Shown here one piece after another: positions 1-20,686 of a stretch of DNA of 33,070 bases. Within the stretch, counting starts at the first letter, position 1. Each line of letters opens with the position of its first letter. Location of the stretch: the sequence record DRR723986_4708. The stretch is one strand, 5' to 3'. The notes under the pieces were generated by a model. The model saw nothing but the letters and a program-made list of their open reading frames with translations, made no database searches and was not told the origin of the DNA. The translations under genes were made by a program, and so were the position numbers.

Positions 1-219
1 CCCGCCGTATTCCCCGCCATAGTAGATGCCGGCCAGCATGATCAGGGCGGTCGTCGGATCGAGGTAGAAGGACAAAGGCAGCAGCATCGAGATCGCCGCC
101 AGCGATCCCAGACCCGGCAGGACGCCGATGAAGGTGCCGAGGAAGACCCCGAAGAAGCAGTAAGCGAGGTTCTCGAGCGTGAAGGCCGTCGCGGCGCCGA
201 GGAGGAGATTTTCCAGCAT
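1..219 (-). CDS. tctA: Tripartite tricarboxylate transporter large permease TctA (5' part; runs off window edge)
   Basis: Manual translation from ATG at 219: MLENLLLGAATAFTLENLAYCFFGVFLGTFIGVLPGLGSLAAISMLLP...MLAGIYYGGEYGG, the typical TctA N-terminus. It follows tctB by 5 nt. Not in the ORF track. Confidence 0.93.
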   Translation of the reverse strand, partial: MLENLLLGAATAFTLENLAYCFFGVFLGTFIGVLPGLGSLAAISMLLPLSFYLDPTTALIMLAGIYYGGEYGG

Positions 220-224
220 GACGG

Positions 225-665
225 TCAGAACCCCCACTTCAGAAGCGGCAGCGGCATCCCGAGGAACCGCGAGAACAGGAGCCACGAGAAAAGACAGGTC
301 ACGGTGGCAAGGATAACCGCCGGCACAAGGCCGTAGCCGCGCTCGGACAGGGTGGTGATGCCCACGACGAGGAAGAACGCGGGGATCATTCCGAAGAAAT
401 GCATCGCGACGCCAAAGGCGAGCACGGCCGACAAAATCGCGATCATGGGCCGCCAGTCGATGGATTTCGCCTCGGGTTTCATCAGGGAGCTGACGATCTC
501 GCTCAGCGCCAGCAGGGTGAGCGCGGCCGAAAGCACCACCGGAAAGTATCCCGGCCCCATGCGAAGCGCGGTGCCGAACTCGTAGCCGAGCGCAATGACG
601 AAACCGGCGATGCCGATCGCCGCAAGTATCGCGGCCATGACCAGCCGTAGCGTTATTATCTGCAC
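225..665 (-). CDS. tctB: Tripartite tricarboxylate transporter small permease TctB
   Basis: 146 aa, hydrophobic, with GTALRMGPGYFP motif and C-terminal LFSRFLGMPLP; lies between tctC and tctA. Confidence 0.9.
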   Translation of the reverse strand: MQIITLRLVMAAILAAIGIAGFVIALGYEFGTALRMGPGYFPVVLSAALTLLALSEIVSSLMKPEAKSIDWRPMIAILSAVLAFGVAMHFFGMIPAFFLVVGITTLSERGYGLVPAVILATVTCLFSWLLFSRFLGMPLPLLKWGF

Positions 666-690
666 TGTCGGCCCTTCCTTGTAGACGTAT

Positions 691-714
691 GGGCGGCGCC
701 CGATCGCGCCGCCC
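691..714 (-). terminator. GC-rich stem-loop after tctC (mRNA stabiliser or partial terminator)
   Basis: GGGCGGCGC-N6-GCGCCGCCC perfect 9-bp inverted repeat; no U-tract. Confidence 0.5.
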
Positions 715-726
715 GCACAGGGGGTG

Positions 727-1719
727 TTATTCGGCGAGTCCGAGGTCGTTGATCACGTTCACCCACTTCGTGCGCTCGCTTTCGAGGAAAGCGGTGGCTT
801 CTGCGGGCGTGGTGAGCGTCGGTGCAAGACCCTGCTCGGCATAGGCTTCCAGCACGGTTTCGTCCTGCATCGCCTTGTTCAGCGCGTCTGACAGGATGGC
901 CTGCGCATCCTCGGGCGTGCCTTCCGGCGTGACCAGCAGGTTCCAGAGCGTGGCCGAATAGCCCTCGAAGCCGCCCTCGGCGATCGTCGGGACATCGGGC
1001 ATGAGAGGCGACCGTTCCGGCGAAGACACGGCGTAGGGATGAATCCCGCCTGCGCGGACCTGCTCGGCGGCGCCGGGCGTGGTCAGAAGGGCAACGTCGA
1101 CGTGGCCGCCAAGCACATCGTTCATCAGGGGCGTATTGCCCTGATAGGGGATGTGCAGCATCTCGACGTTTGCGAGGCTCAGCAGGTATTCCATCGCCAG
1201 ATGGCCCGGAGTGCCCACGCCGGAGGTTCCATAGGCAAGAGCGCCCGGATTGTCGGCGGCGAACTGGATGAGTTCTTCCAGCGTCTGGGGCTCCAGCCCG
1301 TTGCGTCCCGCGATCACGAGACCAAGCGTGCCCATGACGCCCACGATATCCAGCTCGCTGTCGATGTCGTAGCCGGTATCGCGGCCCATGCCGGCAACCA
1401 GGATCGACGCGCCGACACCGCTCACGCCAAGCGTGTGCCCATCCGGATCCGCCTTGGCGACCGCGCCGATGCCGACGGTCCCGCCCGCGCCCGGGCGGTT
1501 CTCGACGATGACCGGCTGACCGAGGGTCTGCGACATGTTTTCCGCAAGGATCCGCGCCACGACGTCGGTGGAGCCGCCCGGCGGGAAGCCGACGACGAGC
1601 GTGATCGGCCCGCTCGGAAAGTCTTGCGCAGCCGCCATTCCGGCCCCGGCAACCGCCACGCCGCCGACAGCGGCGGCCAGCAACGAGCGGCGGGTCAATT
1701 CCAAGGTTTTGTTCAGCAT
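727..1719 (-). CDS. tctC: TTT substrate-binding protein TctC (Bug family), twin-arginine-like signal peptide
   Basis: ATG at 1719 with GGAGGA upstream. MLNKTLELTRRSLLAAA...AAAQ signal; motifs PITLVVGFPPGGSTD, VENRPGAGG, ADPDGHTL, PDVPTIAE. Confidence 0.93.
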   Translation of the reverse strand: MLNKTLELTRRSLLAAAVGGVAVAGAGMAAAQDFPSGPITLVVGFPPGGSTDVVARILAENMSQTLGQPVIVENRPGAGGTVGIGAVAKADPDGHTLGVSGVGASILVAGMGRDTGYDIDSELDIVGVMGTLGLVIAGRNGLEPQTLEELIQFAADNPGALAYGTSGVGTPGHLAMEYLLSLANVEMLHIPYQGNTPLMNDVLGGHVDVALLTTPGAAEQVRAGGIHPYAVSSPERSPLMPDVPTIAEGGFEGYSATLWNLLVTPEGTPEDAQAILSDALNKAMQDETVLEAYAEQGLAPTLTTPAEATAFLESERTKWVNVINDLGLAE

Positions 1720-1882
1720 TCCAGTTTCCTCCATTGAACAAGTCGATGCTTCAGGTCTTGTGCAAGCCATGCAGGCATGACTTGGGGCCCTGTCCGGCAT
1801 CCTCTCCAAGGCCCCGGGCCGCTTCGTTTGGCGGCGGCCCTTCTTTCCATTCCGAAACGCGGGATGCGGGAACACGTCCGCA

Positions 1883-2242
1883 TCACGCCAAGGCAAACCG
1901 GACCACGGCCCCGCCAAAGGGATGGGGTACGGAACCCTGGGGCCGAACGATCCACGATGTGATCCGCGCACCGTCGCAGATCGGGTGGACGCCGAGCATG
2001 GCTGTCGCCTTGGCGTCTTCCGCGGCTGCGGCCTGAACATCGTCCGCCGTCTGCGTGCCGCACATCGGGGCGTCAATGCAGTGCGAACCGAACAGGCCGA
2101 GGTGCAGGAGCCGAGGTGCTTGGGCCGACCCCGGCGGCGGAGCGATTCCCACGGCGAAACCCTTGGGGTGCGCGGGGTCCTGTGCGGCCAACGGCGTGCC
2201 CGCTATCGCCAGCATCATGCCGGCTATCATGAGTTCCCTCAT
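1883..2242 (-). CDS. Hypothetical secreted protein (119 aa)
   Basis: ATG at 2242 with GAGGAG upstream; signal peptide MRELMIAGMMLAIAGTPLAA-Q; same strand as its neighbours; no family recognised. Confidence 0.6.
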   Translation of the reverse strand: MRELMIAGMMLAIAGTPLAAQDPAHPKGFAVGIAPPPGSAQAPRLLHLGLFGSHCIDAPMCGTQTADDVQAAAAEDAKATAMLGVHPICDGARITSWIVRPQGSVPHPFGGAVVRFALA

Positions 2243-2391
2243 TGTCACGCCAATCTCCTCCCCCCAATAAAGCCAACTCACCACGCTAAACGACTTAAAA
2301 GCTAGCTATATAGACTTTACCCTCGGACTTCGCCTCCAGGCAATCGTTTTTTCGGCAGTCCGGCCGATACGTCTTCGACGCTGGCGGGCCG

Positions 2392-3048
2392 TCAGGCCGT
2401 GCGCTCCGGCCCGTTGCCATCCGGAATGCCGTCGCGCTCCAGCTTCATCTGCTTCAGGATCGCCTCCCGTTTGGCCACCGCGGCGTCGAGCGTGGTGTCG
2501 TAGATGCTGTTGCCATGCGCGTCGATGCCCACCGTCAGCGGACCGAGCCGTTCCACCTCGATCCGGGCGATCCTGTAGTGCGAAATCATTTCGGGCCAGC
2601 CGATGCCGGTGACCTTGCGGATCGCAGCGGTGATGATCTCGGCACCCCCGCCCAGAAACCCAAGGTAGACGCACCCGCAGTCTGCCATGGTCCGGGCGCT
2701 TTCCGCGCTCAGCCCGCCTTTTCCGCCGGTCATCCGCAGACCGAGGCCGGGTATGAGCTTCGGCATGTGGCCGTTGAAGCGCGTGCTGGTCGTGGGGTTC
2801 ATGTAGATGATCCGCAACGCCCCGTCCTCGGTCTCTTCGTTCAGGCTGCCGAGGTGGAACAAGGCGCCGTTGCGCATGTCGAAGGGCGGTTCCTCGGCGC
2901 CGTCCACACAGCGCAGCAGGCGGTCGTGGGTGGGCAGCCCGGCGGTGGCGAAGATCTCGCCGGTCAGATAGACCACGTCGCCGGCGTGCAACTCTTCGAT
3001 TGCGTCCCGCGTGATGGGCAGGGTCAGGTCTTGTTCCCGTACACTCAT
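2392..3048 (-). CDS. Class I fumarate hydratase / tartrate dehydratase-like Fe-S hydro-lyase, beta subunit
   Basis: ATG at 3048 overlaps the alpha-subunit stop (ATGA). Motifs LHAGDVVYLTG, PTTSTR, GGKGG, GPLTVGIDAHGNS. Confidence 0.88.
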   Translation of the reverse strand: MSVREQDLTLPITRDAIEELHAGDVVYLTGEIFATAGLPTHDRLLRCVDGAEEPPFDMRNGALFHLGSLNEETEDGALRIIYMNPTTSTRFNGHMPKLIPGLGLRMTGGKGGLSAESARTMADCGCVYLGFLGGGAEIITAAIRKVTGIGWPEMISHYRIARIEVERLGPLTVGIDAHGNSIYDTTLDAAVAKREAILKQMKLERDGIPDGNGPERTA

Positions 3049-3914
3049 TCCCCCCACTCCATGCGGCCATCGTTCCAGATCCGCACGCTGGTCCGGCGGC
3101 TGATCCAGCAGTTGAAGCAGACGGCGACCGGCGTGAAGCCGTGGCCGCTGGAATAGTCGATATGAACACCCAGCACGGTGGTGTCGCCGCCGGTGCCCAT
3201 AGGGCCGAAGCCGAGCGCGTTCACCGCCGATTTCAGCCGCTCCTCCATCTTTGCGAGGATTGGTTCGGGGTTGGCCTGACCGATGGGCCGCAGCGTCTGT
3301 TTCTTGGCCAGCGCGGCGCAGTGATCGAAGGAGCCTCCGATCCCGACACCCATGACGACCGGCGGGCAATGCTGCGCGCCCGCCTTGATCGCGACGTCGA
3401 GAACGTAGGTCTCGATTTCCTCGAGCGAGGGAAAGGTGAACAGTTCCAGCGCAGCCCAGCGGCCCGACCCCAGCGCCTTGGGCGAGCAGATCATCTCGAT
3501 ATAATCAGCCCCGCTCTCGAAGTCATAGGAGACGATGGGCATATCCTTGCCGTGGTAGCCGCGCTCCTGCGTCAGCGGATTGGTCACATGCTTTAGGAGC
3601 GGCGGGTCGATGGTGTCGACCAGCTCCTCGTATCCGCTGCGGATCGAGGCCTTGATGTCGCAGTCGAGCTGGGCCTTGCTGCCGATCTTGACGAAATAGG
3701 TAGGGAAGCCGCTGTCGGAACAGACGAACCGGTCCTTGCGCTCCGCCAGTTCGGCGCTTCGGAGTTGCAGCTCCAGCGTGCGGCGCGCAAGCTCGTTCGA
3801 CTCGGTTTGCATGGCGGCCCGCAAACCGTCCTTCGCGTCCTCGGGCACCTTGCGCAGCGAGCGGGAATACAGCTCGCGCGTGGCGGTGTGGATCATCTCA
3901 TCGGTGATGGCCAA
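3045..3914 (-). CDS. Class I fumarate hydratase / tartrate dehydratase-like Fe-S hydro-lyase, alpha subunit
   Basis: TTG start 9 nt after GGGAGGG. Three Cys motifs (VCSDSG, HCPP, NCW) plus GVGIGG and LGFGPMGTGGDTT. Confidence 0.88.
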   Translation of the reverse strand: MAITDEMIHTATRELYSRSLRKVPEDAKDGLRAAMQTESNELARRTLELQLRSAELAERKDRFVCSDSGFPTYFVKIGSKAQLDCDIKASIRSGYEELVDTIDPPLLKHVTNPLTQERGYHGKDMPIVSYDFESGADYIEMICSPKALGSGRWAALELFTFPSLEEIETYVLDVAIKAGAQHCPPVVMGVGIGGSFDHCAALAKKQTLRPIGQANPEPILAKMEERLKSAVNALGFGPMGTGGDTTVLGVHIDYSSGHGFTPVAVCFNCWISRRTSVRIWNDGRMEWGE

Positions 3915-4051
3915 CTGCCATATCCCTCCCTCAATCGGCCACTCTCCGGCGGGCCGGCTTCACGATCGCGCGTGTCGCGTCGCACGTGCAACCGCGCCGG
4001 ATGCCGGCAGGGGCCTGTGGCGGTCCCACTGGATCGCTCGCATTAAAGTCA

Positions 4052-4078
4052 ATTATATAACTTATATATCCAGGTCAA
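4052..4078 (-). promoter_or_regulatory. Candidate sigma70 promoter overlapped by an AT-rich palindromic operator
   Basis: Minus strand TTGACC-N15-TATAAT (short spacer); perfect dyad TATATAA-C-TTATATA at 4054-4068 within GC-rich surroundings. Confidence 0.55.
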
Positions 4079-4973
4079 GAGTCTCGCGGATCTTCCGGAT
4101 CAGGTCCACGCGGTTCTGGCGTGTGTATACCGCAGCATGAGGGGACAGCACGCAGGAGCCGAGCGCGAGGAAGCGCTCATCGGGCCGGGGTTCGTTTTCG
4201 AAGACGTCGAGCCCGGCGCCGGCAATGCGTCCGTCACGCAGCGCGGCGATCAGGGCCTCTTCGTCGACGACGGACCCGCGCGACACGTTCACGAGGTACC
4301 CTTGCGGACCAAGCGCGTCGAGCAGCGCGGCAGAGGCGAGGTGATGGGTGGCCGGACCGCCCGCGCAACTGAGGATCAGCAGGTCGGACCCTGCCGCGAG
4401 CGTCAGCAGATCGGGCTCGAAGGTCCAGGGAACCGGCTTGGCCCGGCGCCCGGTATAGGCCACGTCGCAACCAAGGGCCGCCAGCTTGTCGGCGATACGG
4501 CTGCCGATGCGGCCCAGTCCGACGATCCCGGCCCGCGCGCCCGAGAGCCTTCGGCCCAATCCGGCGCGCCCCGTTGCCCATCCACCGCTGCGCACGAAAC
4601 GGTCGTTGGCGGCCACGTTCCGCATCGTGGCCATCGCCAACGCGACCGCGTATTCCGCGGTATCCTCGGTCATGACGTCGGGGGTCGGGCACAGCGCGAT
4701 CCCGCGCGCTTCGAGCCATGGCTGGTCGAACAGATCGACCCCGGCCCCCACGCTCGCGATGCGCGTCAGCCCGGGAAGGCGCGCGATCACCGCCTTGTCG
4801 GCGCCGCCCATGGCCGAGGTGACGGCCAGACGGATCGCCGCGACCTCCTGCCCCGGCAGTCCGGTCAGGTCGTCCGGCGAGACCAGCGCGACATCCGGCT
4901 CCAGCGCCGCCCGCACGTCTGCCGGAAAGGTGCCAAGCACCGCGACCTTCTTCTTCGTGTCCGCCTTTGGCAT
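4062..4973 (-). CDS. D-isomer-specific 2-hydroxyacid dehydrogenase (glyoxylate/hydroxypyruvate reductase-like; likely NADPH-preferring)
   Basis: GLGRIG Rossmann motif followed by YTGRR; catalytic triad motifs VNVSRG, GLDVFENEP, SPH. Confidence 0.9.
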   Translation of the reverse strand: MPKADTKKKVAVLGTFPADVRAALEPDVALVSPDDLTGLPGQEVAAIRLAVTSAMGGADKAVIARLPGLTRIASVGAGVDLFDQPWLEARGIALCPTPDVMTEDTAEYAVALAMATMRNVAANDRFVRSGGWATGRAGLGRRLSGARAGIVGLGRIGSRIADKLAALGCDVAYTGRRAKPVPWTFEPDLLTLAAGSDLLILSCAGGPATHHLASAALLDALGPQGYLVNVSRGSVVDEEALIAALRDGRIAGAGLDVFENEPRPDERFLALGSCVLSPHAAVYTRQNRVDLIRKIRETLDLDI

Positions 4974-5310
4974 CCGGCATCACCCCCCGTGAGACTGCTA
5001 TTAGACGCCGGGCCCGGCACCGTCGGATCATCGTCGGGGTGCGGGTCAGGGCGTTCTAAAGAATACTTATATGATTCATTCAGGCCAGACAGCCCCCCAT
5101 GGCGCCAACGCAAAATCGGTGCCTGCCGGCATGGCTGGAACAGGGGCGGCGGCGGAACGGGTCCGGACATGCGGGGTTCCCGTGCCGCTCTCTCCGGTCG
5201 GTGGATGCTCCGACGGCGAGGAGGGGGCCGTCGTCTTCAACCCTTGAAACAGGGCGGGGGCGCTTGCACGGGAGGAGCCGTCATGACGTCCGATGAAGGG
5301 CGCGATCCGG

Positions 5311-7989
5311 TCACCTTTGACCCGATCCGCCCGGAGCCGCGTCCGCATGGCCGGCCGATCTGTGCTCCCGGATCAGTCGCGCCGCCACGCTTGGCAGGAT
5401 GCCGCCCTCGCGAAGGTAGCGCAGTTCCTCCCCGGTATCGACACGGGACAGGGCGTCGAAGCCCCCGCGCACGGATCCGTCCGGGCCAATCACGGACACC
5501 CGGAGCGTTTGGCCGGGCTCCAGCGTGTTGCAGGAGGCCTCTATCGAGAAGCGGTCACCAGCCTCGAGGCCGAGCGACTGGCGTCCCTCTCCGTTTATGA
5601 ACTCCAGCGGCAGCACGCCCATTCGGACGAGGTTCGAGCGGTGGATCCGTTCGAAGCTTTCTGCGATGACGACGGCGATGCCAAGCAGACGTGTGCCCTT
5701 CGCGGCCCAGTCCCGCGCGGAACCGGCGCCGTAGCGCTCTCCGGCGATGACCACGACCTGCTCGCCGCGCGCCGCATAGGCCTCGGAGGCGGCGAAGACG
5801 GAGGCTTCGCCGCCCTCTGGCATGATCCGGGTGCGCGGTCCGACGCCTTCGACCATCTCGTTCCGCAACCGAAGATGGGCAAAGGTCCCGCGGGCCATCA
5901 CGTTGTGATTGCCGCGCCGCCCGCCGTAGTTGTTGAAGTCCTTCGGCGCGACACCCCGCTCCATGAGATAGGCGGCCGCCTCGCTGTCGGCGGCGATGGT
6001 CCCGACCGGAGAGATGTGATCCGTCGTCACCGCATCGCCGAGGATCAGCAGGGGCCGCGCAGCCCTGAGGATCGGCCCGCTGCCGGCGAAGCCCGCCGGC
6101 ACGTCGAAGAACGGCGGACGCTGGAGGTAGGTGCTGTCCTCCGTCCAGCCGAAGGTGTCGCTTCCGGCCACGTCGAGGGCTTCCCAGTTTTCGTCGCCCC
6201 GGGCGATATCGGCATAGGAGGCGCGAAACCGCTCCTGAACCACGACCTTGCGAAGTAGCGCGTCGATCTCCTCGGCCGCTGGCCAGATGTCGGCCAGCGC
6301 GACCGGATGCCCCTCGGGATCCCGTCCCAGCACGTCAAGATCGGTCCGCATCGTCCCGGCTATGGCATAGGCCACCACGAGCGGCGGCGAGGCGAGAAAA
6401 TTCGCCTTCACCTGCGGGTGGATCCGGGCCTCGAAATTGCGGTTGCCGGACAGAACGGCGGAAACGCAGAGATCGGCGTCGATGATCGCTTTCGAGACGT
6501 CGGCGTCGATGTCTCCGGAATTGCCGACGCAGGTCGTGCATCCGAACGCCGCAAGCTCGAAACCGAGCGCCGCGAGATCGGCGTCGAGTCCGGCTGCCGA
6601 GAGATACTGCATCACCGCGCGCGAGCCCGGCGCAAGCGAGGTCTTGATCCGGGGGTTCACGGTCAGGCCGCGCTTGCGGGCATTCCGTGCCAGAAGTCCG
6701 GCGGCGATCATCGCCTCCGGGTTCGAGGTGTTCGTGCAGGAGGTGATCGCGGCGATGACGATATCGCCGTCGCTCACGCCGTCCTGTGTCTTGATCTCGC
6801 GCCCGATGGTGTCGTCCATCACGCTTGCGACGGCGCTGATGTCGCGCCCCTGCTCTGGCCGCGAGGGGCCGGAGACGGTCCGGCTGACCGTCGAGAGATC
6901 GAATTCCATCACGTCGTCGAACCGGGGCCGGGCGTCGGGGTCGAACCAGAGGTCGGTGCGCCGGAGGTAGCTCTCCACGGCCGAGATCTTTGCGGCCGGC
7001 CGCCCGGTCAGGTCGAGGTAGTCGATGGTCGCGCGGTCGACGGGAAACACCGCCGAGGTCGAGCCGAATTCCGGGCTCATGTTGGCGATTGTCGTCCGGT
7101 CGGCGACCGAAAGCGCAGTCACGCCGGGCCCGAAGAACTCGACGATGGCCCCCACGACGCCGAACCGGCGCAGGGCATCGGTCAGTTTCAGGGCAAGGTC
7201 GGTGGCCAGAACGCCTGTCGGCAGGCTGCCCGTCAGCTCTACCCCGATCACCGGCGGAACCAGCATCGAGACCGCTTCGCCCAGCATGACCGCTTCGGCC
7301 TCGATCCCGCCGACGCCCCAGCCCAGCACGCCGATGCCGTTGACCATCGTCGTATGGCTGTCGGTGCCGATCACCGTATCGGGAAACTGCCAGGCCCGGC
7401 CGCCCACGTCACGGGCCGTGACCACATCGGCCAGATGCTCGATGTTGATCTGATGGATGATCCCGCGCCCCGGCGGTATCACCGTCAGGTTGTCCATCTT
7501 CTTCTGCGCCCATTTCATGAAGGCAAAACGCTCGCGGTTGGCGGCAAACTCCAGCGCCTGATTGCGCAAGAGCGCGTCCGGCCCGCGCGAGTGATGCGCC
7601 ATGACGGAATGGTCGATGATCAGATCGGCGGGCACCTGGGGATTCAGCGCACCGGGGGCGATACCGTTCTTCCGTGCCTTGTCGCGAAGCATCGCCATGT
7701 CGATGAGCGCGGGCAATCCTGCGCTGTCCTGAAGGATCACGCGACCGGGATGAAAGCTGATCTCGGTGCCGAGGGCGTCGCCCCTGGCCAGTTGTTCGAA
7801 ATGGTTGGCGGTGACACTTTCGCCGTTCTCGTGCCGCACGAGGTTCTCGAACAGAACCCGAAGGCTGAATGGCATGTCCGCAAGCTGCGGAAACCGGGCC
7901 GCTGCCTTGCGCAGGTCGACGAAGCGGACACCGTCCGCATCGGACAACAGTTCAAGGGTTTCAGATTTCACCGCGTTGGCTTCCTGCAT
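5311..7989 (-). CDS. acnA: AcnA/IRP-family aconitate hydratase homolog (divergent active site)
   Basis: 892 aa. Motifs DHS, GTDSHTTM, AAITSCTNTSNP, GCTTCVGNSG (three Fe-S Cys), SGNRNFE, TTDHISP, RDWAAKG, AESFERIHRSNL. Confidence 0.92.
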   Translation of the reverse strand: MQEANAVKSETLELLSDADGVRFVDLRKAAARFPQLADMPFSLRVLFENLVRHENGESVTANHFEQLARGDALGTEISFHPGRVILQDSAGLPALIDMAMLRDKARKNGIAPGALNPQVPADLIIDHSVMAHHSRGPDALLRNQALEFAANRERFAFMKWAQKKMDNLTVIPPGRGIIHQINIEHLADVVTARDVGGRAWQFPDTVIGTDSHTTMVNGIGVLGWGVGGIEAEAVMLGEAVSMLVPPVIGVELTGSLPTGVLATDLALKLTDALRRFGVVGAIVEFFGPGVTALSVADRTTIANMSPEFGSTSAVFPVDRATIDYLDLTGRPAAKISAVESYLRRTDLWFDPDARPRFDDVMEFDLSTVSRTVSGPSRPEQGRDISAVASVMDDTIGREIKTQDGVSDGDIVIAAITSCTNTSNPEAMIAAGLLARNARKRGLTVNPRIKTSLAPGSRAVMQYLSAAGLDADLAALGFELAAFGCTTCVGNSGDIDADVSKAIIDADLCVSAVLSGNRNFEARIHPQVKANFLASPPLVVAYAIAGTMRTDLDVLGRDPEGHPVALADIWPAAEEIDALLRKVVVQERFRASYADIARGDENWEALDVAGSDTFGWTEDSTYLQRPPFFDVPAGFAGSGPILRAARPLLILGDAVTTDHISPVGTIAADSEAAAYLMERGVAPKDFNNYGGRRGNHNVMARGTFAHLRLRNEMVEGVGPRTRIMPEGGEASVFAASEAYAARGEQVVVIAGERYGAGSARDWAAKGTRLLGIAVVIAESFERIHRSNLVRMGVLPLEFINGEGRQSLGLEAGDRFSIEASCNTLEPGQTLRVSVIGPDGSVRGGFDALSRVDTGEELRYLREGGILPSVAARLIREHRSAGHADAAPGGSGQR

Positions 7990-8066
7990 TGGTCAATCGC
8001 ACATTGATTTGTGCGGACCGCGCCTTTCGGCCCGGACCGCACGCTTTCCGTTCGGGGCCGCGTGGC

Positions 8067-9017
8067 TCAGAGGCCCAGCAACTGTCCCGGGTTCTTCCGC
8101 ACCATGGCATCGATGTCGGTCTGCGGAATCCCTTCGGCAAGAAGGCCGTTGACCAGTTCGATCATGCCGTCGGGATGAAGCGGGTTTCCGGTCTGCCCGA
8201 GGTCGCTGGCAAGTATGAAATGCTCCGCGCCGATCTGTTTCACGGCCTCGGCCATGTCGGGTATCGAGTTCGGTTTGCGAGCCCTGAGCCACGGGAGATG
8301 CGCATGCGGCGTCCCGAGATGATCGAGATAGATCAGTTCGAGATAGGCTCCCATCGAGGCCGCTTCCTGCATCTGTTCGATGGTCAGGCCGGGGTTTTCC
8401 GCCATGGCATGGGTGACGACGATCTTGCCGATCCCCTTTTCCGTCGCACGGCGGATCACCGCAAGCACCTCTTCGGGATAAAGATGGCCGGTCTCGAGGA
8501 TCAGGTCATGCTCGAGCACGGCATCGAGCACCTCCTCCGTTTCCGGAGTGAGCGCACCGTCCTCGAGAACCCGGATGCCGCCGGGCTGGCCACCCTTCGA
8601 TTCGCGGTGGAAGGCGGAATCGAAGGTCGGAAACCACACGACCTTGCCGCGGCCGCCGGACATCTTCGCCATCGTGCGCACGGCCTCGGCATTGATGCCG
8701 CCCACCGCGTAGTTCAGCACGACACCGCCGAAGACCTCGAGGCCGGGGACCTGCGCATTGACCAGCGCCGCGCGGTCCGACGTCATGGTGACGTGGTTCT
8801 TGAGCACCAGTCCGCCCATGTCGTGACGGGCGGCGATCTCGGCAAGTTCGATGTCGGACAGGTTGCGCGACGAAATGTCGGGTGACGTGTGAACGTGGAA
8901 GTCTATGGCGCCCCGGATCGGATTTGAATCCGTCGCCGCCACTTGGGCGGCTGCCGGTGTCTGGGTCAGCCAAAGCGCCGCGGTCGCAGCGAGGGCGCCT
9001 TTCAGAATATGGGTCAT
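8067..9017 (-). CDS. Exported amidohydrolase-superfamily metalloprotein (DUF6282-like)
   Basis: ATG at 9017 after AGGAGGAGG; signal peptide ending AAA-Q; motifs GAIDFHVHTSPD, LKNH, WFPT, TGHL, VTHA, ASDLGQ. Confidence 0.78.
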   Translation of the reverse strand: MTHILKGALAATAALWLTQTPAAAQVAATDSNPIRGAIDFHVHTSPDISSRNLSDIELAEIAARHDMGGLVLKNHVTMTSDRAALVNAQVPGLEVFGGVVLNYAVGGINAEAVRTMAKMSGGRGKVVWFPTFDSAFHRESKGGQPGGIRVLEDGALTPETEEVLDAVLEHDLILETGHLYPEEVLAVIRRATEKGIGKIVVTHAMAENPGLTIEQMQEAASMGAYLELIYLDHLGTPHAHLPWLRARKPNSIPDMAEAVKQIGAEHFILASDLGQTGNPLHPDGMIELVNGLLAEGIPQTDIDAMVRKNPGQLLGL

Positions 9018-9041
9018 GTGTCCTCCTCCTGTTGGTATGAG

Positions 9042-9070
9042 AAGGCTCCGGGCCGATGGTCCGGAGCCTT
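9042..9070 (-). terminator. Stem-loop after second tctC
   Basis: AAGGCTCCGG-N9-CCGGAGCCTT perfect 10-bp inverted repeat. Confidence 0.55.
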
Positions 9071-9076
9071 GGTTCG

Positions 9077-10048
9077 TCATTTCTTCGAGAGGAAGATGTC
9101 CTTGTACTGCGCGTTGAACTCGTACTCTTTCTTCAGGTAATCGACGGTTTCCTCTGCCGACAGGAAGTAGGGGGTCATCTTGACCTTGGCGTATTCGGTC
9201 TTCAGCGCATCGCTCTCGGCCAGCTCGGCCAAGGCCGCGGTCAGGGTCTCGACGGCCTCGGCAGAGGCTTCGGGCGGCAGCGCGACCCAGAACAGGCGGT
9301 CGGGCATCTCGACGTCGATCCCCTGTTCGGCGAAGGTCGCGACATCGGGGAGCCCTTCGAAACGCTTGGACGCCGGGGTGCCAAGCGCCCGCATGTCGCC
9401 GCTTTCGAGATAGCTCTGCACGGCACCGACCTGCACTTCGGACACGTCGACGTGCTGGCCAAGGATGCTGACGATCTTCTCACCGATCCCGCCGACGTCG
9501 ATGTTGTGCATCTCCACACCGGCCGCCTGCTCGAAGGCGGCGGCGTGCACGTGAGTTTGGCTGCCGAAGTTGATGCCGTTCTTGACCGATCCGGGGTTGG
9601 CCTTCGCCGCTTCGACGACGTCTTCCATGTTCTGGTAGGGCGAGTTGCCGGAGGTGACCCAGATCGACCCCTCGGACAGGCCTACGGAGCCAAGGACGGT
9701 CAGGTCGTCGAAGGCGAAGTCGATCGCACCCGTCAGCATGCTGCCAAGGACGCCCGAGTGGTGGAACAGCATGGTATAGCCGTCCGGGTCCGCCTGATAG
9801 ACGTTCGTGGTGGCGATGCTGCCGGAGGCCCCGGCGATGTTCACGGGCACCACCGTCGAGCCGAGAGCGGCCTCGAGCTGGCTGGCGAAGATGCGGCCCA
9901 GCAGATCGGTGTCGCCGCCGGGGTTGTACGGGATCACCAGCTGGATCGGCTTCGTCGGGTAGTCCTGTGCGTGTGCACTGCCGGCAGCCAGCACGCCGAG
10001 CGCCGGAAGGGCTGCCGTGGCGATCGCCTTGAGGGTATGAAGTTTCAT
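9077..10048 (-). CDS. tctC: TTT substrate-binding protein TctC (Bug family)
   Basis: ATG at 10048 after AGGAGGAG; signal peptide ending AHA-Q; motifs YPTKPIQLVIPYNPGGDTD, ADPDGYTML, PDVATFAEQG. Confidence 0.92.
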   Translation of the reverse strand: MKLHTLKAIATAALPALGVLAAGSAHAQDYPTKPIQLVIPYNPGGDTDLLGRIFASQLEAALGSTVVPVNIAGASGSIATTNVYQADPDGYTMLFHHSGVLGSMLTGAIDFAFDDLTVLGSVGLSEGSIWVTSGNSPYQNMEDVVEAAKANPGSVKNGINFGSQTHVHAAAFEQAAGVEMHNIDVGGIGEKIVSILGQHVDVSEVQVGAVQSYLESGDMRALGTPASKRFEGLPDVATFAEQGIDVEMPDRLFWVALPPEASAEAVETLTAALAELAESDALKTEYAKVKMTPYFLSAEETVDYLKKEYEFNAQYKDIFLSKK

Positions 10049-10077
10049 GGTTATCTCCTCCTGTTGAAACGGGTCGT

Positions 10078-11580
10078 TCAGTTTTGCGGGACCGGGCGAA
10101 GGCGGCTGTAGGCCGCCGTGATCAGGGGCAGGGCGATGAAGACCAGCGACAGCAGCAGGAAGGCGCCGCTGATCGGACGGGTCAGGAACTCCGTAAGGTC
10201 GCCCTTGGACGCGGTCAGGGCCCGGTAGAAGTTGGTTTCGACGATGGGCCCGAGAATGAAGCCCAGCACCGCCGGTTGCAGCGGAAAGCCGAAGGTGCGC
10301 AGGGCAAAGCCAAGCCCGCCGAACATCACCATCGACCAGACGTCGAAGGCGCGGTTGTTCAGCCCGAAGGCCCCGACGAGGCACATCACCACGACCAGCG
10401 GCATGAGGACGTTCTTCGGCGTGCGGACGATGCGGATGAACAGCGGCATCAGCAGGAACATGAAGGCCGCCATGGCGAAGGACGCGACGACGAGCGAGGT
10501 GAAGATGCCGTAGACCAGCTCGCCCTGGGTCAGGAACAGAAGCGGCCCGGGCTGGATGTTGTTCATGATGAAGGCCCCGAGCAGGATCGAGGCGACGGTG
10601 TCGCCGGGAATGCCCAGTGCCAGAAGCGGCACGAGCGCCCCGCCGATGCACGCGTTGTTGGCGCTTTCCGAAGCCGCGACGCCGTCGACGATGCCGGTGC
10701 CGTACTGGTCACCCCGGCGCGACGTCTTCTTGGCCGCAAGATAGCCCGTCAGGCTGGCGGTGCTGACGCCGATCCCCGGCAGGATGCCGATTCCGGTGCC
10801 GACGGTCGCCGCGACGAGGAAGGTCCGGATGTTGCCGATGACATCGGCCAGCTTGAGGCCGACCTCCTTCGTGGCCTCGCCCAGCTTGCGCATGGTCGCC
10901 TTGGCCGGACCGTTGCCGGAATCGTGCAGCAGTTCCGAGATCGCGAAGAGGCCGACGAGGAAGGGCACCATGGCAAAGCCCGCCTGCAGATCGACATGGC
11001 CGCCCGTCAGGCGCTCGATGCCGCCCACCGGGCTCATCCCCACCATGGCGATTGCGATGCCGATCACGCCGCTGATGAACCCCTTGATCATGGATCCCGC
11101 ACTCAGGCTGGCGATCAGCGACAGTGCGAAGAACGAGACGGCGAAATACTCGAAAGGCGTGAACTTCAGCGCGAACCTCGCCAGCATGGGGGCAAAGATC
11201 GCAAGCACGGCGATCCCGAACAGGGTGCCCAGGAAGGAGAACAGCACGGCGGCGCTCAGCGCCTTCTTCGCTTCACCCTTCATCGCCATCGGATAGCCGT
11301 CGAAGAGCGTCGCGACGGAGCCGGGCGTACCGGGAAGGTTCATCATGATCGCGGGGATCAGCCCGCCCGAGATGCCGCCGATGAACAGCCCGCAGAGAAG
11401 CGACAGACCGTGCAGGGCCGGCATGGTGAAGGTCAGCGGCAGGCACAGGATCAGGCCCATCGAGGCGGTCAGCCCGGGGACGGATCCGAACACGATGCCG
11501 AGGGCGACGCCGCCGAACACCAGCAGGATGCAGTAGATGTCGAGCGCGGCCGTGGCGCCCTGCAGAAAAACGTCGAACAT
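10078..11580 (-). CDS. tctA: TTT large permease TctA
   Basis: 500 aa from ATG at 11580; motifs GSVPGL, NLPGTP, DGYPMA, ASESANNA, LALGIPGD, QPGPLLF. Confidence 0.94.
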   Translation of the reverse strand: MFDVFLQGATAALDIYCILLVFGGVALGIVFGSVPGLTASMGLILCLPLTFTMPALHGLSLLCGLFIGGISGGLIPAIMMNLPGTPGSVATLFDGYPMAMKGEAKKALSAAVLFSFLGTLFGIAVLAIFAPMLARFALKFTPFEYFAVSFFALSLIASLSAGSMIKGFISGVIGIAIAMVGMSPVGGIERLTGGHVDLQAGFAMVPFLVGLFAISELLHDSGNGPAKATMRKLGEATKEVGLKLADVIGNIRTFLVAATVGTGIGILPGIGVSTASLTGYLAAKKTSRRGDQYGTGIVDGVAASESANNACIGGALVPLLALGIPGDTVASILLGAFIMNNIQPGPLLFLTQGELVYGIFTSLVVASFAMAAFMFLLMPLFIRIVRTPKNVLMPLVVVMCLVGAFGLNNRAFDVWSMVMFGGLGFALRTFGFPLQPAVLGFILGPIVETNFYRALTASKGDLTEFLTRPISGAFLLLSLVFIALPLITAAYSRLRPVPQN

Positions 11581-11582
11581 GG

Positions 11583-12086
11583 TCAGCTCCCCAGGAGGCC
11601 CTGCGGCAGCGGCATCGACAGCAGGTGCCAGAACAACAGGTTGACGATGACAGGGAATGCGATCGCAATGATCGCGGTGCGCAGCGGTCTGAAGGTGCCG
11701 GCCTCGTAGGTGAGGATGTAGCACTGTGCGAAGATGTAGAGGATCGAGGTCAGCACGAAGCCCAGCCATTCGAAGCAGGCCGCGGCGGCGACGATCAGGA
11801 ACACGGTGGCCAGCAGTCGGCCGGGATAGGCGAAATGCCGGTCAGCCGATTGCGCCTCGCGCTCCAGCGCGGCGGCATCCGGGTTCGGGTCGCCGAACGG
11901 CACGAAGGTCATGATCAGCAATCCGCAGCTCAGCGCGCCGAGGATCAAGGCGACGAGGCGCGGCGCGAGGCTCATGTCGAGCCCGGCAACCACCGTTTCG
12001 CCGGGACCGGGCAGGCTCGTGTACATCGCGATCGCGGCCAGCAGGATCGCGACCCCGGCGATGCCGTCCGTCAGTTTCTTGGTCAT
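11583..12086 (-). CDS. tctB: TTT small permease TctB
   Basis: 167 aa with about 4-5 hydrophobic segments and C-terminal LFWHLLSMPLPQG; directly upstream of tctA. Confidence 0.85.
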   Translation of the reverse strand: MTKKLTDGIAGVAILLAAIAMYTSLPGPGETVVAGLDMSLAPRLVALILGALSCGLLIMTFVPFGDPNPDAAALEREAQSADRHFAYPGRLLATVFLIVAAAACFEWLGFVLTSILYIFAQCYILTYEAGTFRPLRTAIIAIAFPVIVNLLFWHLLSMPLPQGLLGS

Positions 12087-12198
12087 ATGTTCTCCCCCTT
12101 CGTGATGCCGTGTTCGGCCGCGCGATGTGGCCGGCTGCGTCGACGCAGCAAACGGCGGAGGCCCGCGGCATCATGCGGCCCCCGACGCTCCGGGATGA

Positions 12199-13179
12199 TC
12201 AGGCGACGCGGTAGCACTCCGTCGCTTGGCCGAACAGCGCGCGTGCCGTTTCCCGCGCGATCGAACAGGCGACGCGGCACAGGCTTTCCTGCGTGGCGCC
12301 GCCGTAGTGTGGCGTTGCAATGAAATTCGGCAAGGACAGCAGCGGGTGATCGACCGCCGGCGGCTCTTGCTGGAAGACGTCCATTCCGGCAGCGCCGATC
12401 GTTCCGTCCGCCAGCCCGGCGGCAAGGGCCATCTCGTCGACAATCCCGCCGCGCGAGGTGTTCACGAGGATGAGCCCGGGCTTGGCAGCCGCAAGCACCT
12501 CCTGCGAAATCAGGTTCGTCGTCTCCGCCGTGCGCGGCAGGTTGATGCTGACGAAATCGCAGGCTGCGAAGAGGTCGGTGAGCCTGTCCATCCGGGCCAC
12601 GTCGGTCCGCTCCTGCCAGAAGCTGTCGGGCAGCTTCGGATCATAGGCGACGACGTCCATCTCGAAAGCCTTGCGCAGGATATCCGCCGTCATCCGTGCG
12701 ATCCGGCCGTATCCGACAAAGCCTGCGCGGTTGCGGTACAGTTCGCGGCACCCCGTGCCCTTGCGCCCTTCGGTCCAGCCGTCGTTCCGCACCAGATGAT
12801 GCGCGTGTGTCACGCGACGGGCCGCCGCCAGCATCAGCGTCACCGAAAGCTCGGCCACCGATTGCGAGTTCTCGAAGGGCGTGTTGAGCACCACGATGTT
12901 GCGCTCGCGCGCGGCGTTCATGTCGACCGAGTCGACGCCCGCCCCGTGCCGGCCGATGACCTTCAGCCGCTTGGCCGCGCGAATGTCCTCGCCGCGCAGG
13001 TCGAGGCCGCGGAGGATCACCGCGTCGGCCTCCTCGCGCCAGTTCTCGATCCGGGCCTCGTCCCAGGTGACGACATCGAGCCGCGGATCGGCCTTGAGAA
13101 GGGCCACGGCATCGCCGTGAATGGGCGCCCGCAGGAAGACCGTCCTGCGCTCACCCGGAACCGGCTGCACGTCATTCAT
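12199..13179 (-). CDS. D-2-hydroxyacid dehydrogenase (phosphoglycerate-dehydrogenase-like, no ACT domain; likely NAD-dependent)
   Basis: ATG at 13179 overlaps the upstream stop. Motifs RHGAGVD, NSQSVAE, GYGRIA...YDP, NTSRG, DVFQQEP, TPH. Confidence 0.9.
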   Translation of the reverse strand: MNDVQPVPGERRTVFLRAPIHGDAVALLKADPRLDVVTWDEARIENWREEADAVILRGLDLRGEDIRAAKRLKVIGRHGAGVDSVDMNAARERNIVVLNTPFENSQSVAELSVTLMLAAARRVTHAHHLVRNDGWTEGRKGTGCRELYRNRAGFVGYGRIARMTADILRKAFEMDVVAYDPKLPDSFWQERTDVARMDRLTDLFAACDFVSINLPRTAETTNLISQEVLAAAKPGLILVNTSRGGIVDEMALAAGLADGTIGAAGMDVFQQEPPAVDHPLLSLPNFIATPHYGGATQESLCRVACSIARETARALFGQATECYRVA

Positions 13180-13867
13180 AGGCGGCCTCGATGATCTCGC
13201 AGCCCGCCTTTTCAAGCGCGGCATCGACCCAGCTGCGGTCCAGCGTGCCGTCCTTGCCGGCGGCGACCTTGGCCTGATCCTTGTCCGACAGGGCGCGGCC
13301 CTTGGCGAGAACGTCCTCCGCGTCGGTGCGCGGCACGATCACGACCCCGTCGTTATCGGCCAGAACGATGTCGCCGGGGTTGACCACGCACCCCTCGAAA
13401 GAGATCGGCACGTTGACCTGACCCGGCCCCTGCTTCATCGGTCCACCCGGACGGGTGCCCGTTGCGAAGACCGGAAGCCCCAGCGTATCGAGGCTGTCGA
13501 TATCGCGGATCGGGCCGTCGAAGACGATGGCGGCCACCTTCTTGAATTTGGCGTAGCCGAACATGACCTCGCCCATCAGCGCCTGGGTCTGGGCGCCGCC
13601 GTTGGAAACGATGATGACGTCGCCTTCCTGCGCCATGTTCAGCGCCTTGTGGATCATCAGGTTGTCTCCCGCCGCGACCTGCACCGTCAGCGCCACGCCG
13701 GCAACGGGCTGCGGCAGGCGCGGTCCCTGGAGGCGCGTGGTTGCCGGCAGCGAGTTCAGACGGTTCATGACATCGGCGACATTGGCCGTCGGCAGGGCAC
13801 TGAGGGATTTCACCACTGCGGGCGACGGGAGCTTGCGGTCGCAGTACACGCGGAAGCCAACGGTCAT
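13172..13867 (-). CDS. RraA-family protein / HMG-CHA aldolase-like (class II pyruvate aldolase fold)
   Basis: ATG at 13867 after AGGAG. Motifs ANVAD, GDNLMIHKAL, E-X20-R-D (GEVM...DGPIRD), VNPGDIVLADNDGVV. Confidence 0.88.
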   Translation of the reverse strand: MTVGFRVYCDRKLPSPAVVKSLSALPTANVADVMNRLNSLPATTRLQGPRLPQPVAGVALTVQVAAGDNLMIHKALNMAQEGDVIIVSNGGAQTQALMGEVMFGYAKFKKVAAIVFDGPIRDIDSLDTLGLPVFATGTRPGGPMKQGPGQVNVPISFEGCVVNPGDIVLADNDGVVIVPRTDAEDVLAKGRALSDKDQAKVAAGKDGTLDRSWVDAALEKAGCEIIEAAYE

Positions 13868-13975
13868 CTCGAACTCCTGGATATTTATGAGCCCGGTTCC
13901 TCGCGGCCGGACTGCCGTGTCGAGTTCCGTCTTGCCAAAGGTGCATGATAACTTCAAATTCCAAATAATCATGAA

Positions 13976-13996
13976 TTGATGATCTGAGGTTATCAA
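13976..13996. promoter_or_regulatory. LysR-type binding box (T-N11-A dyad) abutting the LysR start codon
   Basis: TTGAT-GATCTGAGGTT-ATCAA: 5-bp dyad with an 11-nt core, in the AT-rich divergent intergenic region. Confidence 0.65.
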
Positions 13997-14874
13997 TGGA
14001 CGTCAGAGATCTCAGCTACTTCCGGGTGATCGCGGAACTCGGCCACATGGGCAGGGCAGCCGAACGGTTGCACCTGACCCAGCCGGCCCTGACCAAGGCA
14101 ATGCAAAGGCTCGAGGAATCCCTCGACGGCAAGCTGTTCCTGCGAGAGGGCCGTGGCATCGTGCTGACCGAACTGGGTCGGGTCCTGCTGGAGAAAAGCA
14201 CGGTGATCGAGCGGATGATGACCGAGACTCGACGCGAGCTGCACAGCTTTGCCCAGGGCGAGGCCGGCCACATCCGGTTTGGCTGCGCGCCGACGCTCGC
14301 CAAGTACTACTTGCCCGAAATCGTGCGCAAACTGCTTGCGAAAAGTCCGAAGGTGACGATCGACCTCGAAACGAATGTCAGCGGTCCGCTCCTGACGGCG
14401 CTGCGCCAGCACAGGCTCGACGCGGTGCTGACCCATGTCACCGGGCCGATGGACGGGTTCGAAGTGTCTCCGGTGCTGAAGGATGAAGTTGCCATCGTCG
14501 GCAGCTGGGCGCACCCGCTGGCCGGGCGCACGGTTCAGGTCAGGGATCTGCAAAAGTACAACTGGGTCCTGCCCACGGAATCCGCGCTCGTGCCGTGGCT
14601 GGGCGACCTGTTCAAACGGCACGGTTGCCCGCCTCCAATGGCCCAGATCCGGGCGACCTCGATCCTCTATCTGCCCTCGCTGATCGGCGGAACGGAGCTG
14701 CTCAGCCTCTTGTCGACCAGAAACCTGCAGGACGATGTGACAGGCCAGCATCTCACGCAGATCCACGTGGCCGACGAACGACACTATCGCACCTTCGGCC
14801 TTGTGTCGCGCGACCGGGAGACCCTGTCGCCGGCCACGCGGTGCCTGTTCGAGATCGTCGTCGACACGTTGTAA
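13996..14874 (+). CDS. LysR-family transcriptional regulator
   Basis: 292 aa; N-terminal HTH RAAERLHLTQPALTKAMQRLEE...LFLREGRGIVLT; divergent from the catabolic run. Confidence 0.95.
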   Translation: MDVRDLSYFRVIAELGHMGRAAERLHLTQPALTKAMQRLEESLDGKLFLREGRGIVLTELGRVLLEKSTVIERMMTETRRELHSFAQGEAGHIRFGCAPTLAKYYLPEIVRKLLAKSPKVTIDLETNVSGPLLTALRQHRLDAVLTHVTGPMDGFEVSPVLKDEVAIVGSWAHPLAGRTVQVRDLQKYNWVLPTESALVPWLGDLFKRHGCPPPMAQIRATSILYLPSLIGGTELLSLLSTRNLQDDVTGQHLTQIHVADERHYRTFGLVSRDRETLSPATRCLFEIVVDTL

Positions 14875-17910: not shown

Positions 17911-17933
17911 TGGCCCGCGTGGGAGGACAAGAC

Positions 17934-18920: not shown

Positions 18921-18979
18921 GGGCGACCCCGCCGAGGACCCAAGACCGACGACACGCATCAAAACCATGGGAGGATAAC

Positions 18980-19924: not shown

Positions 19925-19934
19925 TCCGCCACCC

Positions 19935-19959
19935 GGCGCTCCGCTTCAGGCGGGGCGCC
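19935..19959 (+). terminator. Stem-loop after the sugar-binding protein gene
   Basis: GGCGCTCCGC-TTCAG-GCGGGGCGCC, a 10-bp stem with one U-G pair; no U-tract. Confidence 0.5.
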
Positions 19960-19989
19960 CACCCCGACCAGACCACCAAAGGACCGCCC

Positions 19990-20679: not shown

Positions 20680-20686
20680 GGCCAGC

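Follow-up and report, generated by a model that had tools for sequence, protein, structure and literature searches.

Does a run of co-oriented genes for the uptake and conversion of organic acids encode one catabolic pathway or several? The question is raised by the first 14,874 positions of a stretch of DNA of 33,070 nucleotides (sequence record DRR723986_4708), the whole of which was analysed and is called here the window. This part encodes two tripartite tricarboxylate transporters (TTT), an aconitase, a two-subunit Fe-S hydro-lyase related to fumarases, two D-2-hydroxyacid dehydrogenases (DH1 and DH2), an RraA-like protein, a protein of the family DUF6282 and a LysR regulator. A preliminary description, made from the sequence alone, had joined them into a single pathway of 14 genes. 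On balance, we lean towards the view that two catabolic modules, independent of each other and both equipped with a TTT importer, lie side by side in the region: module A (positions 5311-14874) and module B (1-4973 and beyond).

Two blocks of genes in the window and in related genomes

The closest genome that we found is that of Frigidibacter oleivorans (G001), whose DUF6282 protein is 90% identical to that of the window. One of its contigs (L001) carries LysR, RraA, DH1, TctB, TctA, TctC, DUF6282 and the aconitase, in the order of the window and with 81-95% protein identity. The genes for DH2, the hydro-lyase subunits FumA and FumB, TctC2, TctB2 and TctA2 are found on a different contig (L085), with 69-93% identity. 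The nucleotide comparison gives the same picture. With blastn, positions 5362-14873 of the window form a single alignment of 9523 bases to L001 (84.6% identity), and L085 aligns to positions 2-1732, 2456-3939 and 4034-4973. Neither Frigidibacter locus matches positions 4974-5361 or the spacer at 1733-2455. The break of homology falls exactly between the aconitase and DH2 genes, which are separated by a junction of 337 bases (4974-5310) without homology to either locus.

We searched samples of genomes for the two blocks, and "not found" refers to the genomes searched. Among 401 genomes of Rhodobacteraceae, the RraA-like protein of module A has a close match (90% identity) only in Frigidibacter, and the other 24 matches are at 49% or lower. 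A class-wide sample gave matches in 9 of 401 genomes (E ≤ 1e-40), again close only in Frigidibacter. The FumA-like subunit of module B has orthologues with 84-93% identity in four of the Rhodobacteraceae genomes and one more at about 60%; the remaining 40 matches (E ≤ 1e-30) are 30-35% identical. For the three genomes other than Frigidibacter that have the close hydro-lyase, the family search found no close module-A RraA. Hence, the hydro-lyase of module B occurs apart from that RraA. We regard the gene content, both block boundaries and the separate inheritance of the blocks as established by these comparisons. The two solute-binding proteins, TctC1 and TctC2, are only 30% identical, and DH1 and DH2 are 37% identical. 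With a transporter and a dehydrogenase in each half, it is simpler to assume two pathways, one for each of two substrates.

The gene calls rest on coding frames chosen by third-position G+C (GC) content (0.77-0.85 in the chosen frames) and by Pfam support; the GC content across the window is 0.62-0.71. Thirteen co-oriented minus-strand genes with Pfam support extend from 13867 down to 1, and the LysR gene is divergent on the plus strand. The preliminary description had counted 14 genes divergent from LysR. The divergence and 13 of the genes hold; the 14th, the open reading frame (ORF) at 1883-2284, has no Pfam match and is not conserved in the Frigidibacter locus, and was rejected. The families that had been named (two TTT systems, hydro-lyases, RraA, dehydrogenases and DUF6282) are all recovered by Pfam. 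The TTT families TctA, TctB and TctC are each present twice, the second TctA being cut by the edge of the window.

The proteins of the two modules

The regulator of module A is a LysR-type protein (13996-14874, plus strand; PF00126 and PF03466) that is 86% identical in L001, where it ends the homology block. Its best NCBIfam match is PcaQ (134.8 bits for a cut-off of 303.8). The divergent intergenic region of 128 bases (13868-13995) separates it from the RraA-like gene and holds one sigma-70-like match on the minus strand (13996-13968). The other genes are all on the minus strand. The RraA-like class II aldolase/decarboxylase (13172-13867, 231 residues; PF03737, E 3.2e-42) shares 8 bases with the start of DH1. 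DH1 (12199-13179; PF02826 and PF00389) resembles phosphoglycerate dehydrogenases. The transporter follows, with TctB1 (11583-12086; PF07331, E 5.8e-15), the large membrane subunit TctA1 (10078-11580; PF01970, E 3.2e-133; 95% identity in L001) and the solute-binding protein TctC1 (9077-10048; PF03401, E 3.4e-34; 88% identity in L001). The last two genes encode the DUF6282 protein (8067-9017; PF19799, E 1.8e-64) and the aconitase (5311-7989, 892 residues; Pfam Aconitase and Aconitase_C). In Frigidibacter, two genes of the MmgE/PrpD family, a family tied to tricarboxylate metabolism, adjoin module A upstream of LysR (L001, 3-2593) and are absent from the window.

Is the aconitase an ordinary AcnA? 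It scores over the AcnA equivalog cut-off (TIGR01341, 1051.3 bits vs 945) and under that of AcnD (TIGR02333, 800.7 bits vs 1419.85). Frigidibacter has three PF00330 genes: the cluster copy, an AcnA that is 48% identical to it, and a short one (an open frame of 484 amino acids) that is of leuC type by length only. Searched with the window protein, homologues form one group at 73-85% identity (Frigidibacter, Nitratireductor basaltis, Hoeflea ulvae and metagenomic proteins) and another at 51-63% (Amorphus, Cohaesibacter, Aurantimonas, Ancylobacter and Aureimonas), below which lies the mass of generic AcnAs at about 50%. A FastTree phylogeny of 81 rows separates 38 paralogues from 43 ordinary AcnAs by a long branch with 100% SH-like (Shimodaira-Hasegawa-like) support, and the second Frigidibacter AcnA falls among the ordinary ones. 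The ordinary rows of this tree are every second of 83 AcnAs (ranks 38-120 in a search for which the window aconitase was the query, a choice that calls for some caution) plus the second Frigidibacter copy, and the midpoint root serves for drawing only.

The residues separate the two sets as well. Of the positions with 95% conservation or more among the 83 ordinary AcnAs, 45 are replaced in the window's group, many of them also in the sister group. S758A and G789R occur in all members of both (11/11 and 27/27), T90A in 11/11 and 26/27, and T175R in 11/11 of the window's group, the sister group having mostly Q at this position. W447R/K, P493D/E, S687N and D132H are further replacements in the clade. 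In an alignment to human IRP1 (2B3X), position 758 is the Ser after the catalytic Ser in GAGSSR, position 493 lies after the CxxC ligands and position 175 is four residues before the histidine of IIHQ. The Cys ligands and the active-site Arg and Ser are kept, and the motifs CTNTSNP, CxxC, NRNF..R, RRGN and GAGS.R are retained. We take the catalytic and ligand roles of these residues to be those of the general aconitase literature; a literature search on Ser643, Arg644 and Gln72 found no open paper. The divergent second copy in Frigidibacter, the homologue groups, the split in the tree and the 45 replaced positions indicate that this is not an ordinary AcnA. As far as sequence can tell, it is an AcnA-type paralogue of a separate clade. 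The preliminary description had called both hydro-lyases of the region divergent. This is borne out for the fumarase-like pair, which is under every NCBIfam equivalog cut-off, and holds for the aconitase at the level of the clade only.

The genomic contexts of the clade are informative. In N. basaltis, the DUF6282 protein (76% identity) and the aconitase (77%) have consecutive accessions in GenBank (KFB09342.1 and KFB09343.1) and in UniProt, an indication that the two genes are neighbours in a second alphaproteobacterial order too. A paralogue at 57% identity was found in 2 of 401 genomes sampled from the order of genome G799. At one locus (L222, genome G941), an RraA-like gene comes first, then a LysR gene, then the series TctB-TctA-TctC-PrpF-CoA_transf_3-aconitase-short citrate-synthase-like protein, and an FAA-hydrolase gene lies further on, past an ORF without Pfam match. 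The presence of PrpF near the aconitase recalls the AcnD-PrpF arrangement. At another locus (L223), the 57% paralogue is beside a short citrate-synthase-like gene, alcohol and aldehyde dehydrogenases and a CoA-transferase (CoA, coenzyme A). From these two neighbourhoods, the clade as a whole is located in contexts of organic-acid catabolism. The short protein that adjoins the aconitase in these two Rhizobiales genomes (L222, 8694-9578; L223, 11568-12425) has about 290 residues and the C-terminal citrate-synthase domain only. A close DUF6282 was found in none of 22 genomes of the family of G941, and a search of plasmids gave 375 records matching the aconitase, all below 60% identity.

The DUF6282 protein matches PF19799 at 217.5 bits (gathering cut-off 26.8), and the family is large, 4406 of 8000 scored candidates being matched at E ≤ 0.001. 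The claim that it is exported agrees with its hydrophobic N-terminus and a leader ending in AAAQ, read by eye in the window protein and in all 14 aligned homologues. Across 14 sequences, H41/H43, K125, H178, H203 and D272 vary little or not at all, and in an AlphaFold model (pLDDT 86.4, pTM 0.84) they are placed at the strand ends of a predicted barrel of the amidohydrolase superfamily. H-x-H, Lys, His, His and Asp at strands 1, 4, 5, 6 and 8 may denote the binuclear-metal subtype of amidohydrolases, and metal binding is predicted. The best Foldseek matches of the model are a probable 2-pyrone-4,6-dicarboxylate hydrolase (4i6k, the top match), phosphotriesterase-like lactonases, E. coli PHP and dipeptidases, at 12-16% identity and TM-scores of 0.5-0.6. 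Judging from the model, the protein is most likely a hydrolase of lactones, esters or amides. We found no paper that mentions DUF6282, and a search of a protein atlas gave only DUF6282 clusters.

The genes for RraA, DH1 and the TTT form a more common association. Ten loci were compared around RraA homologues, namely those of Rhodobacteraceae at 42-49% identity and one class-level match. Eight of them have a dehydrogenase, RraA, TctC and TctA, often with a divergent LysR. The RraA protein was also used to retrieve metagenome contigs. Of the 54 that are 4 kb or longer, 23 carry a DH1-like gene next to RraA; an aconitase was found on none of them, and a distant DUF6282 (28%) on one. Among the matches listed, RraA homologues at 50-60% include proteins of anaerobes, for example of Clostridioides and Desulfovibrio. 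A dehydrogenase paired with RraA, in most cases together with a TTT, is a widespread recurrent unit; in the lineage of the window, the aconitase and DUF6282 have been added to it.

Which reactions might this core catalyse? The closest model to the RraA-like protein is NF004850 ("hypothetical protein"), with 228.1 bits vs a cut-off of 231. The protein is under the cut-offs of LigK/PcmE (TIGR02798, 123.1 vs 304.5 bits; NF006731, 132.3 vs 179 bits), and it is not the RNase E regulator RraA (NF006875, 85.1 vs 136 bits; 231 residues vs about 160). Its best solved match is 3NOJ, an HMG/CHA aldolase-oxaloacetate decarboxylase (E 8.5e-29), with which the R-D pair is aligned (GPIRD vs GVRD). We take this Arg-Asp pair to be catalytic in aldolases of the 3NOJ type. 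DH1 is under the SerA cut-off (TIGR01327, 256 bits vs 454), and its nearest solved structures are phosphoglycerate dehydrogenases and McyI, the substrate of which is a substituted malate.

In module B, all genes are on the minus strand. DH2 (4062-4973; PF02826 and PF00389) is glyoxylate-reductase-like, and its best NCBIfam match reaches 152 bits vs a cut-off of 455. The hydro-lyase has an alpha subunit of the fumarase/TtdA type (3045-3914; Fumerase PF05681, E 1.5e-62) and a beta subunit of the FumA C-terminus/TtdB type (2392-3048; Fumerase_C PF05683, E 9.3e-22), the start of the latter overlapping the stop of the former by 4 bases. The alpha subunit exceeds the cut-off of the generic alpha-domain model (TIGR00722, 203.2 bits, cut-off 100.65), and its five Cys are invariant in five orthologues. 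Alpha and beta subunits are under the cut-offs of TtdAB (NF006084, 133.2 vs 365 bits; NF006082, 97.4 vs 264 bits) and of two-subunit class I fumarases (NF004885, 207.6 vs 276 bits; NF004708, 123.7 vs 269 bits). The spacer at 1733-2455, which contains the rejected ORF, is particular to the window genome, with no Pfam match and no Frigidibacter counterpart at the nucleotide or protein level. It is followed by TctC2 (727-1719; PF03401, E 2.5e-59), TctB2, the small membrane subunit (225-665; PF07331, E 5.6e-17; 69% identity in L085), and the N-terminal 74 residues of TctA2 (1-222; PF01970, E 5.5e-18; 90% identity in L085). The leader of TctC2, as read from the translation, is twin-arginine-like (TRRSLL), and its best solved relatives are Bug27, BugE and BugD. 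TctC1 and TctC2 match solved TTT binding proteins, the ligands of which vary, at only 135 and 186 bits.

The order DH2-FumA-FumB-TctC-TctB-TctA is kept in L085, L253 and L254, while L256 is interrupted by the end of a contig. In all three full loci, genes for a family III CoA-transferase (CoA_transf_3) and a Flavin_Reduct protein lie downstream of TctA, and module B therefore extends past position 1 of the window. The scan found a GntR/UTRA regulator in two of these loci (L085 and L253). About 5 kb upstream of module B, Frigidibacter has a second dehydrogenase-RraA pair (L085, 1608-3377), which is 39% identical to DH1 and 36% to RraA and is accompanied by genes for an alpha/beta hydrolase, a CoA-transferase and an acyl-CoA dehydrogenase. 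Another cluster was seen in a member of the Rhodobacteraceae with 39% GC (G526; L255, 7952-17032). It holds a HIBADH-like dehydrogenase, a flavin-reductase-like protein, FumA-like (59%) and FumB-like subunits, IclR, a DUF6282 (30%) and an FAA hydrolase, as well as a TAXI-type binding protein with a fused DctM.

Candidate routes and rival explanations

Module A would be an operon under the control of LysR, its genes being presumably co-transcribed. We infer the following substrates and order of steps, including the periplasmic role of DUF6282. This protein would act in the periplasm on a lactone, ester or amide and release a citrate-like tricarboxylate, which TctC1, TctB1 and TctA1 would import. 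The aconitase paralogue could then shift the hydroxyl to yield a (2R)-2-hydroxy, 3-carboxy "iso" acid (D configuration), which DH1 would oxidise to a substituted oxaloacetate. Finally, the RraA-like enzyme would decarboxylate the substituted oxaloacetate or cleave a 4-hydroxy-2-oxo acid. The steps of DH1 and RraA combined would amount to a split beta-decarboxylating dehydrogenase. For this half of the region, the sequence of events put forward in the preliminary description, from periplasmic hydrolysis over uptake, isomerisation and oxidation to C-C cleavage, is a reasonable proposal. Module B would take up a second acid, probably a C4-C5 hydroxy-dicarboxylate, for hydration or dehydration by the TtdAB/fumarase-like hydro-lyase and redox at C2 by DH2. 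Genes past the window might provide CoA activation, as the family III CoA-transferase of relatives suggests.

A bolder proposal is that a hitherto unrecognised AcnA subfamily, with a remodelled substrate pocket, and an exported binuclear DUF6282 hydrolase would define a route, new for bacteria, by which a natural analogue of citrate is used, the D-2-hydroxyacid dehydrogenase and the RraA-like decarboxylase replacing a beta-decarboxylating dehydrogenase. We hold this tentatively and consider it rather doubtful. Candidates for the analogue are hydroxycitrate, homocitrate or allo-isocitrate lactone, and a citryl amide. We considered hydroxycitrate itself as the substrate of module A, and nothing in the analysis favours it specifically. 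If the proposal were true, DUF6282, with more than 4,000 homologues, would acquire its first function.

Several observations weigh against the two modules as we describe them. The complete module A was seen in only one other genome, and close RraA orthologues are found in 1 of 401 genomes in both samples. In the window, the modules stand next to each other in one orientation, possibly reflecting selection for joint use, and G526 is the sole place seen that links parts like those of both (a fumarase-like pair beside DUF6282), which hints at cross-talk. The aconitase is over the AcnA cut-off with its core catalytic residues kept, and may still act on citrate. Among 80 DUF6282 loci searched with tblastn, an aconitase was found in L001 and in none of the other 79. 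The neighbours of DUF6282 at 52 loci (94 ORFs scanned, of 151 neighbour ORFs picked) include 5 TctC, 4 2-Hacid_dh, 4 alpha/beta hydrolases, 3 Amidohydro_3 and no aconitase. We had considered the family-wide neighbourhood as a guide to function; the neighbours are too heterogeneous, and hence the role of DUF6282 here cannot be read from the family. The adjacency of DUF6282 and aconitase in N. basaltis is based on accession numbers, not on DNA. No protein of this species is among the best 120 of 3185 RraA homologues, and RraA may not accompany the pair. A promoter and terminator scan of the window gave sites no more numerous than in shuffles, the sigma-70-like match included.

What if all these genes, from RraA through the second TTT, nonetheless formed a single pathway, controlled by one LysR, for one branched or hydroxylated polycarboxylate? 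Their adjacency and common orientation in the window speak for it, as do the union of the 59% fumarase-like pair with DUF6282 and FAA-hydrolase genes in G526 and the further dehydrogenase-RraA pair of Frigidibacter near module B. We nevertheless judge it improbable, and the single 14-gene chain of the preliminary description is not upheld: the homology breaks between the aconitase and DH2, the closest genome has the halves on separate contigs, and orthologues of the module-B hydro-lyase occur in three other genomes without a close module-A RraA. The low identity of the two TctC proteins, the unique junction of 337 bases between the halves and a spacer of about 670 bases within module B count against it as well. 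If the modules are indeed separate, their two binding proteins and two sets of enzymes are to be screened independently.

Other explanations concern module A alone. It could be an ordinary operon for the uptake of citrate or isocitrate, with extra AcnA capacity, with RraA as an oxaloacetate decarboxylase yielding pyruvate, and with a dehydrogenase and DUF6282 that are accessory or unrelated. TctCBA is the classical citrate system, the aconitase is over the AcnA cut-off with the active-site residues of IRP1, and 3NOJ, the solved relative of RraA, is named an aldolase/oxaloacetate decarboxylase. This explanation is unlikely in our view, given that 45 near-invariant AcnA positions are changed across the clade, including the Ser beside the catalytic Ser, and that a long branch splits the clade from ordinary AcnAs. 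Moreover, the sister-group aconitase sits with PrpF and a CoA-transferase, as in the catabolism of citrate analogues, and the use of citrate leaves no role for an exported hydrolase or a dehydrogenase. A variant of the lower protocatechuate/gallate meta-cleavage route seems very unlikely. In such a variant, DUF6282 would be LigI/LigJ-like, the aconitase would hydrate an oxalomesaconate-like enoate and RraA would act as LigK does, giving pyruvate and oxaloacetate. The idea draws on 4i6k as the top Foldseek match of DUF6282, on the matches of RraA to the LigK/PcmE models and to 3NOJ, and on PcaQ as the best match of LysR. It is opposed by the scores of RraA under the LigK cut-offs and by the TM-scores of DUF6282, which lactonases and dipeptidases equal. 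The lower protocatechuate/gallate route is cytoplasmic, whereas DUF6282 is apparently exported. By Pfam, there is no ring-cleavage dioxygenase and no PrpF/LigU gene among the ORFs of the window, and the D-2-hydroxyacid dehydrogenase would be left without a role. We retain two modules with separate substrates as the preferred reading.

Surrounding genes and comparison with known systems

In the rest of the window, beyond LysR, a sugar/polyol cluster (15578-22255, plus strand) encodes a DeoR regulator, an ABC ATPase, a permease, a periplasmic binding protein, a class II aldolase and an FGGY kinase; it flanks LysR in the window and not in Frigidibacter. A TauE/SafE ORF (22395-23552, minus strand) and a GntR/FCD ORF (23153-23923, plus strand) overlap by 400 bases as listed, and the Pfam match suggests a TauE start about 140 codons in, which removes the overlap. 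The ccdA-ccdB toxin-antitoxin pair (24865-25412, minus strand) consists of CcdA (approximately 25161-25412; PF07362, E 2.9e-18) and CcdB (24865-25218; PF01845, E 4.9e-21). It lies between a rhomboid gene and a TRAP transporter, and hints at a plasmid, chromid or island context. The TRAP genes DctP, DctQ and DctM are followed by a three-subunit molybdenum hydroxylase (together 25622-32407, minus strand), with a large molybdenum-cofactor subunit (28699-31263), a 2Fe-2S subunit (within 31077-31814) and an FAD subunit (31574-32407). A TetR gene begins at 32555.

Are the modules known under other names? We found no description of such a cluster in literature searches on hydroxycitrate/aconitase/aldolase, lactonase and RraA/TTT/aconitase topics, judged by titles and the beginnings of abstracts. 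On an aconitase paralogue with PrpF or TctC, only papers on AcnD-PrpF and on aconitase X bear on the topic. This agrees with the earlier statement that the set matches no recognised pathway: it matches no curated NCBIfam equivalog except AcnA, and no relevant paper on DUF6282 or on RraA-TTT-aconitase was found. Likewise, Pfam and NCBIfam scans of the ORFs of the window gave no prpBCF, ligIJU, galABD or tcuAB family, as had been said. The enzyme families are all known; the aconitase clade, the dehydrogenase-RraA-TTT core and the role of DUF6282 are in neither the curated models nor the literature searched.

Annotation pipelines call the AcnA-like clade "aconitate hydratase AcnA", yet its members are in catabolic clusters and have changed invariant positions. 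The dehydrogenase-RraA-TTT core is found again and again, in Rhodobacteraceae as well as in metagenome contigs, some of which are labelled human gut, and the proteins of the large DUF6282 family resemble metallohydrolases and are apparently exported. To find the substrate of module A would anchor the clade, the core and DUF6282, and correct a systematic mis-annotation.

How close are the known systems? By score, the proteins of the two modules reach the AcnA cut-off and those of generic domain models, and miss all other defining curated ones. The system nearest to the aconitase is AcnD-PrpF. AcnD is reported to be an Fe/S-dependent 2-methylcitrate dehydratase that acts with the isomerase PrpF in the 2-methylcitrate cycle (PMC5690661). 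The window resembles it in having an AcnA-like paralogue within a catabolic cluster, and a 57% sister-group relative of this paralogue lies beside PrpF (L222). However, the aconitase of the window is under the AcnD cut-off, Pfam and NCBIfam find no PrpF, PrpC or PrpB family in the window, and the partners are instead a D-2-hydroxyacid dehydrogenase, an RraA-like enzyme, a TTT and DUF6282. The fold of LigK, GalC and 3NOJ is common to the RraA-like protein, with a C-C cleaving last step as a plausible role; the latter is under the curated cut-offs and is paired with a dehydrogenase and a TTT, not with LigI, LigJ and LigU. In module B, the overlapping Fumerase and Fumerase_C genes and the conserved cysteines are as in TtdAB, two-subunit class I fumarases and mesaconase. 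The pair is under the equivalog cut-offs, and its conserved module has a dehydrogenase and a TTT, joined in relatives by a flavin-reductase-like protein and a family III CoA-transferase.

The transporters have all three subunit families of the TctCBA system of Salmonella and of the Bug binding proteins, twice in the window. TctCBA of Salmonella is regulated by the two-component system TctDE, whereas module A has the gene order B-A-C and is apparently regulated by LysR. Lastly, the predicted (beta/alpha)8 barrel of DUF6282, with H-x-H, K, H, H and D at the strand ends, would be like that of binuclear amidohydrolases, such as phosphotriesterase-like lactonases and renal dipeptidase, and of LigI. 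It differs from them in forming a Pfam family of its own, in its distance (12-16% identity, TM-scores of 0.5-0.6) and in being apparently exported.

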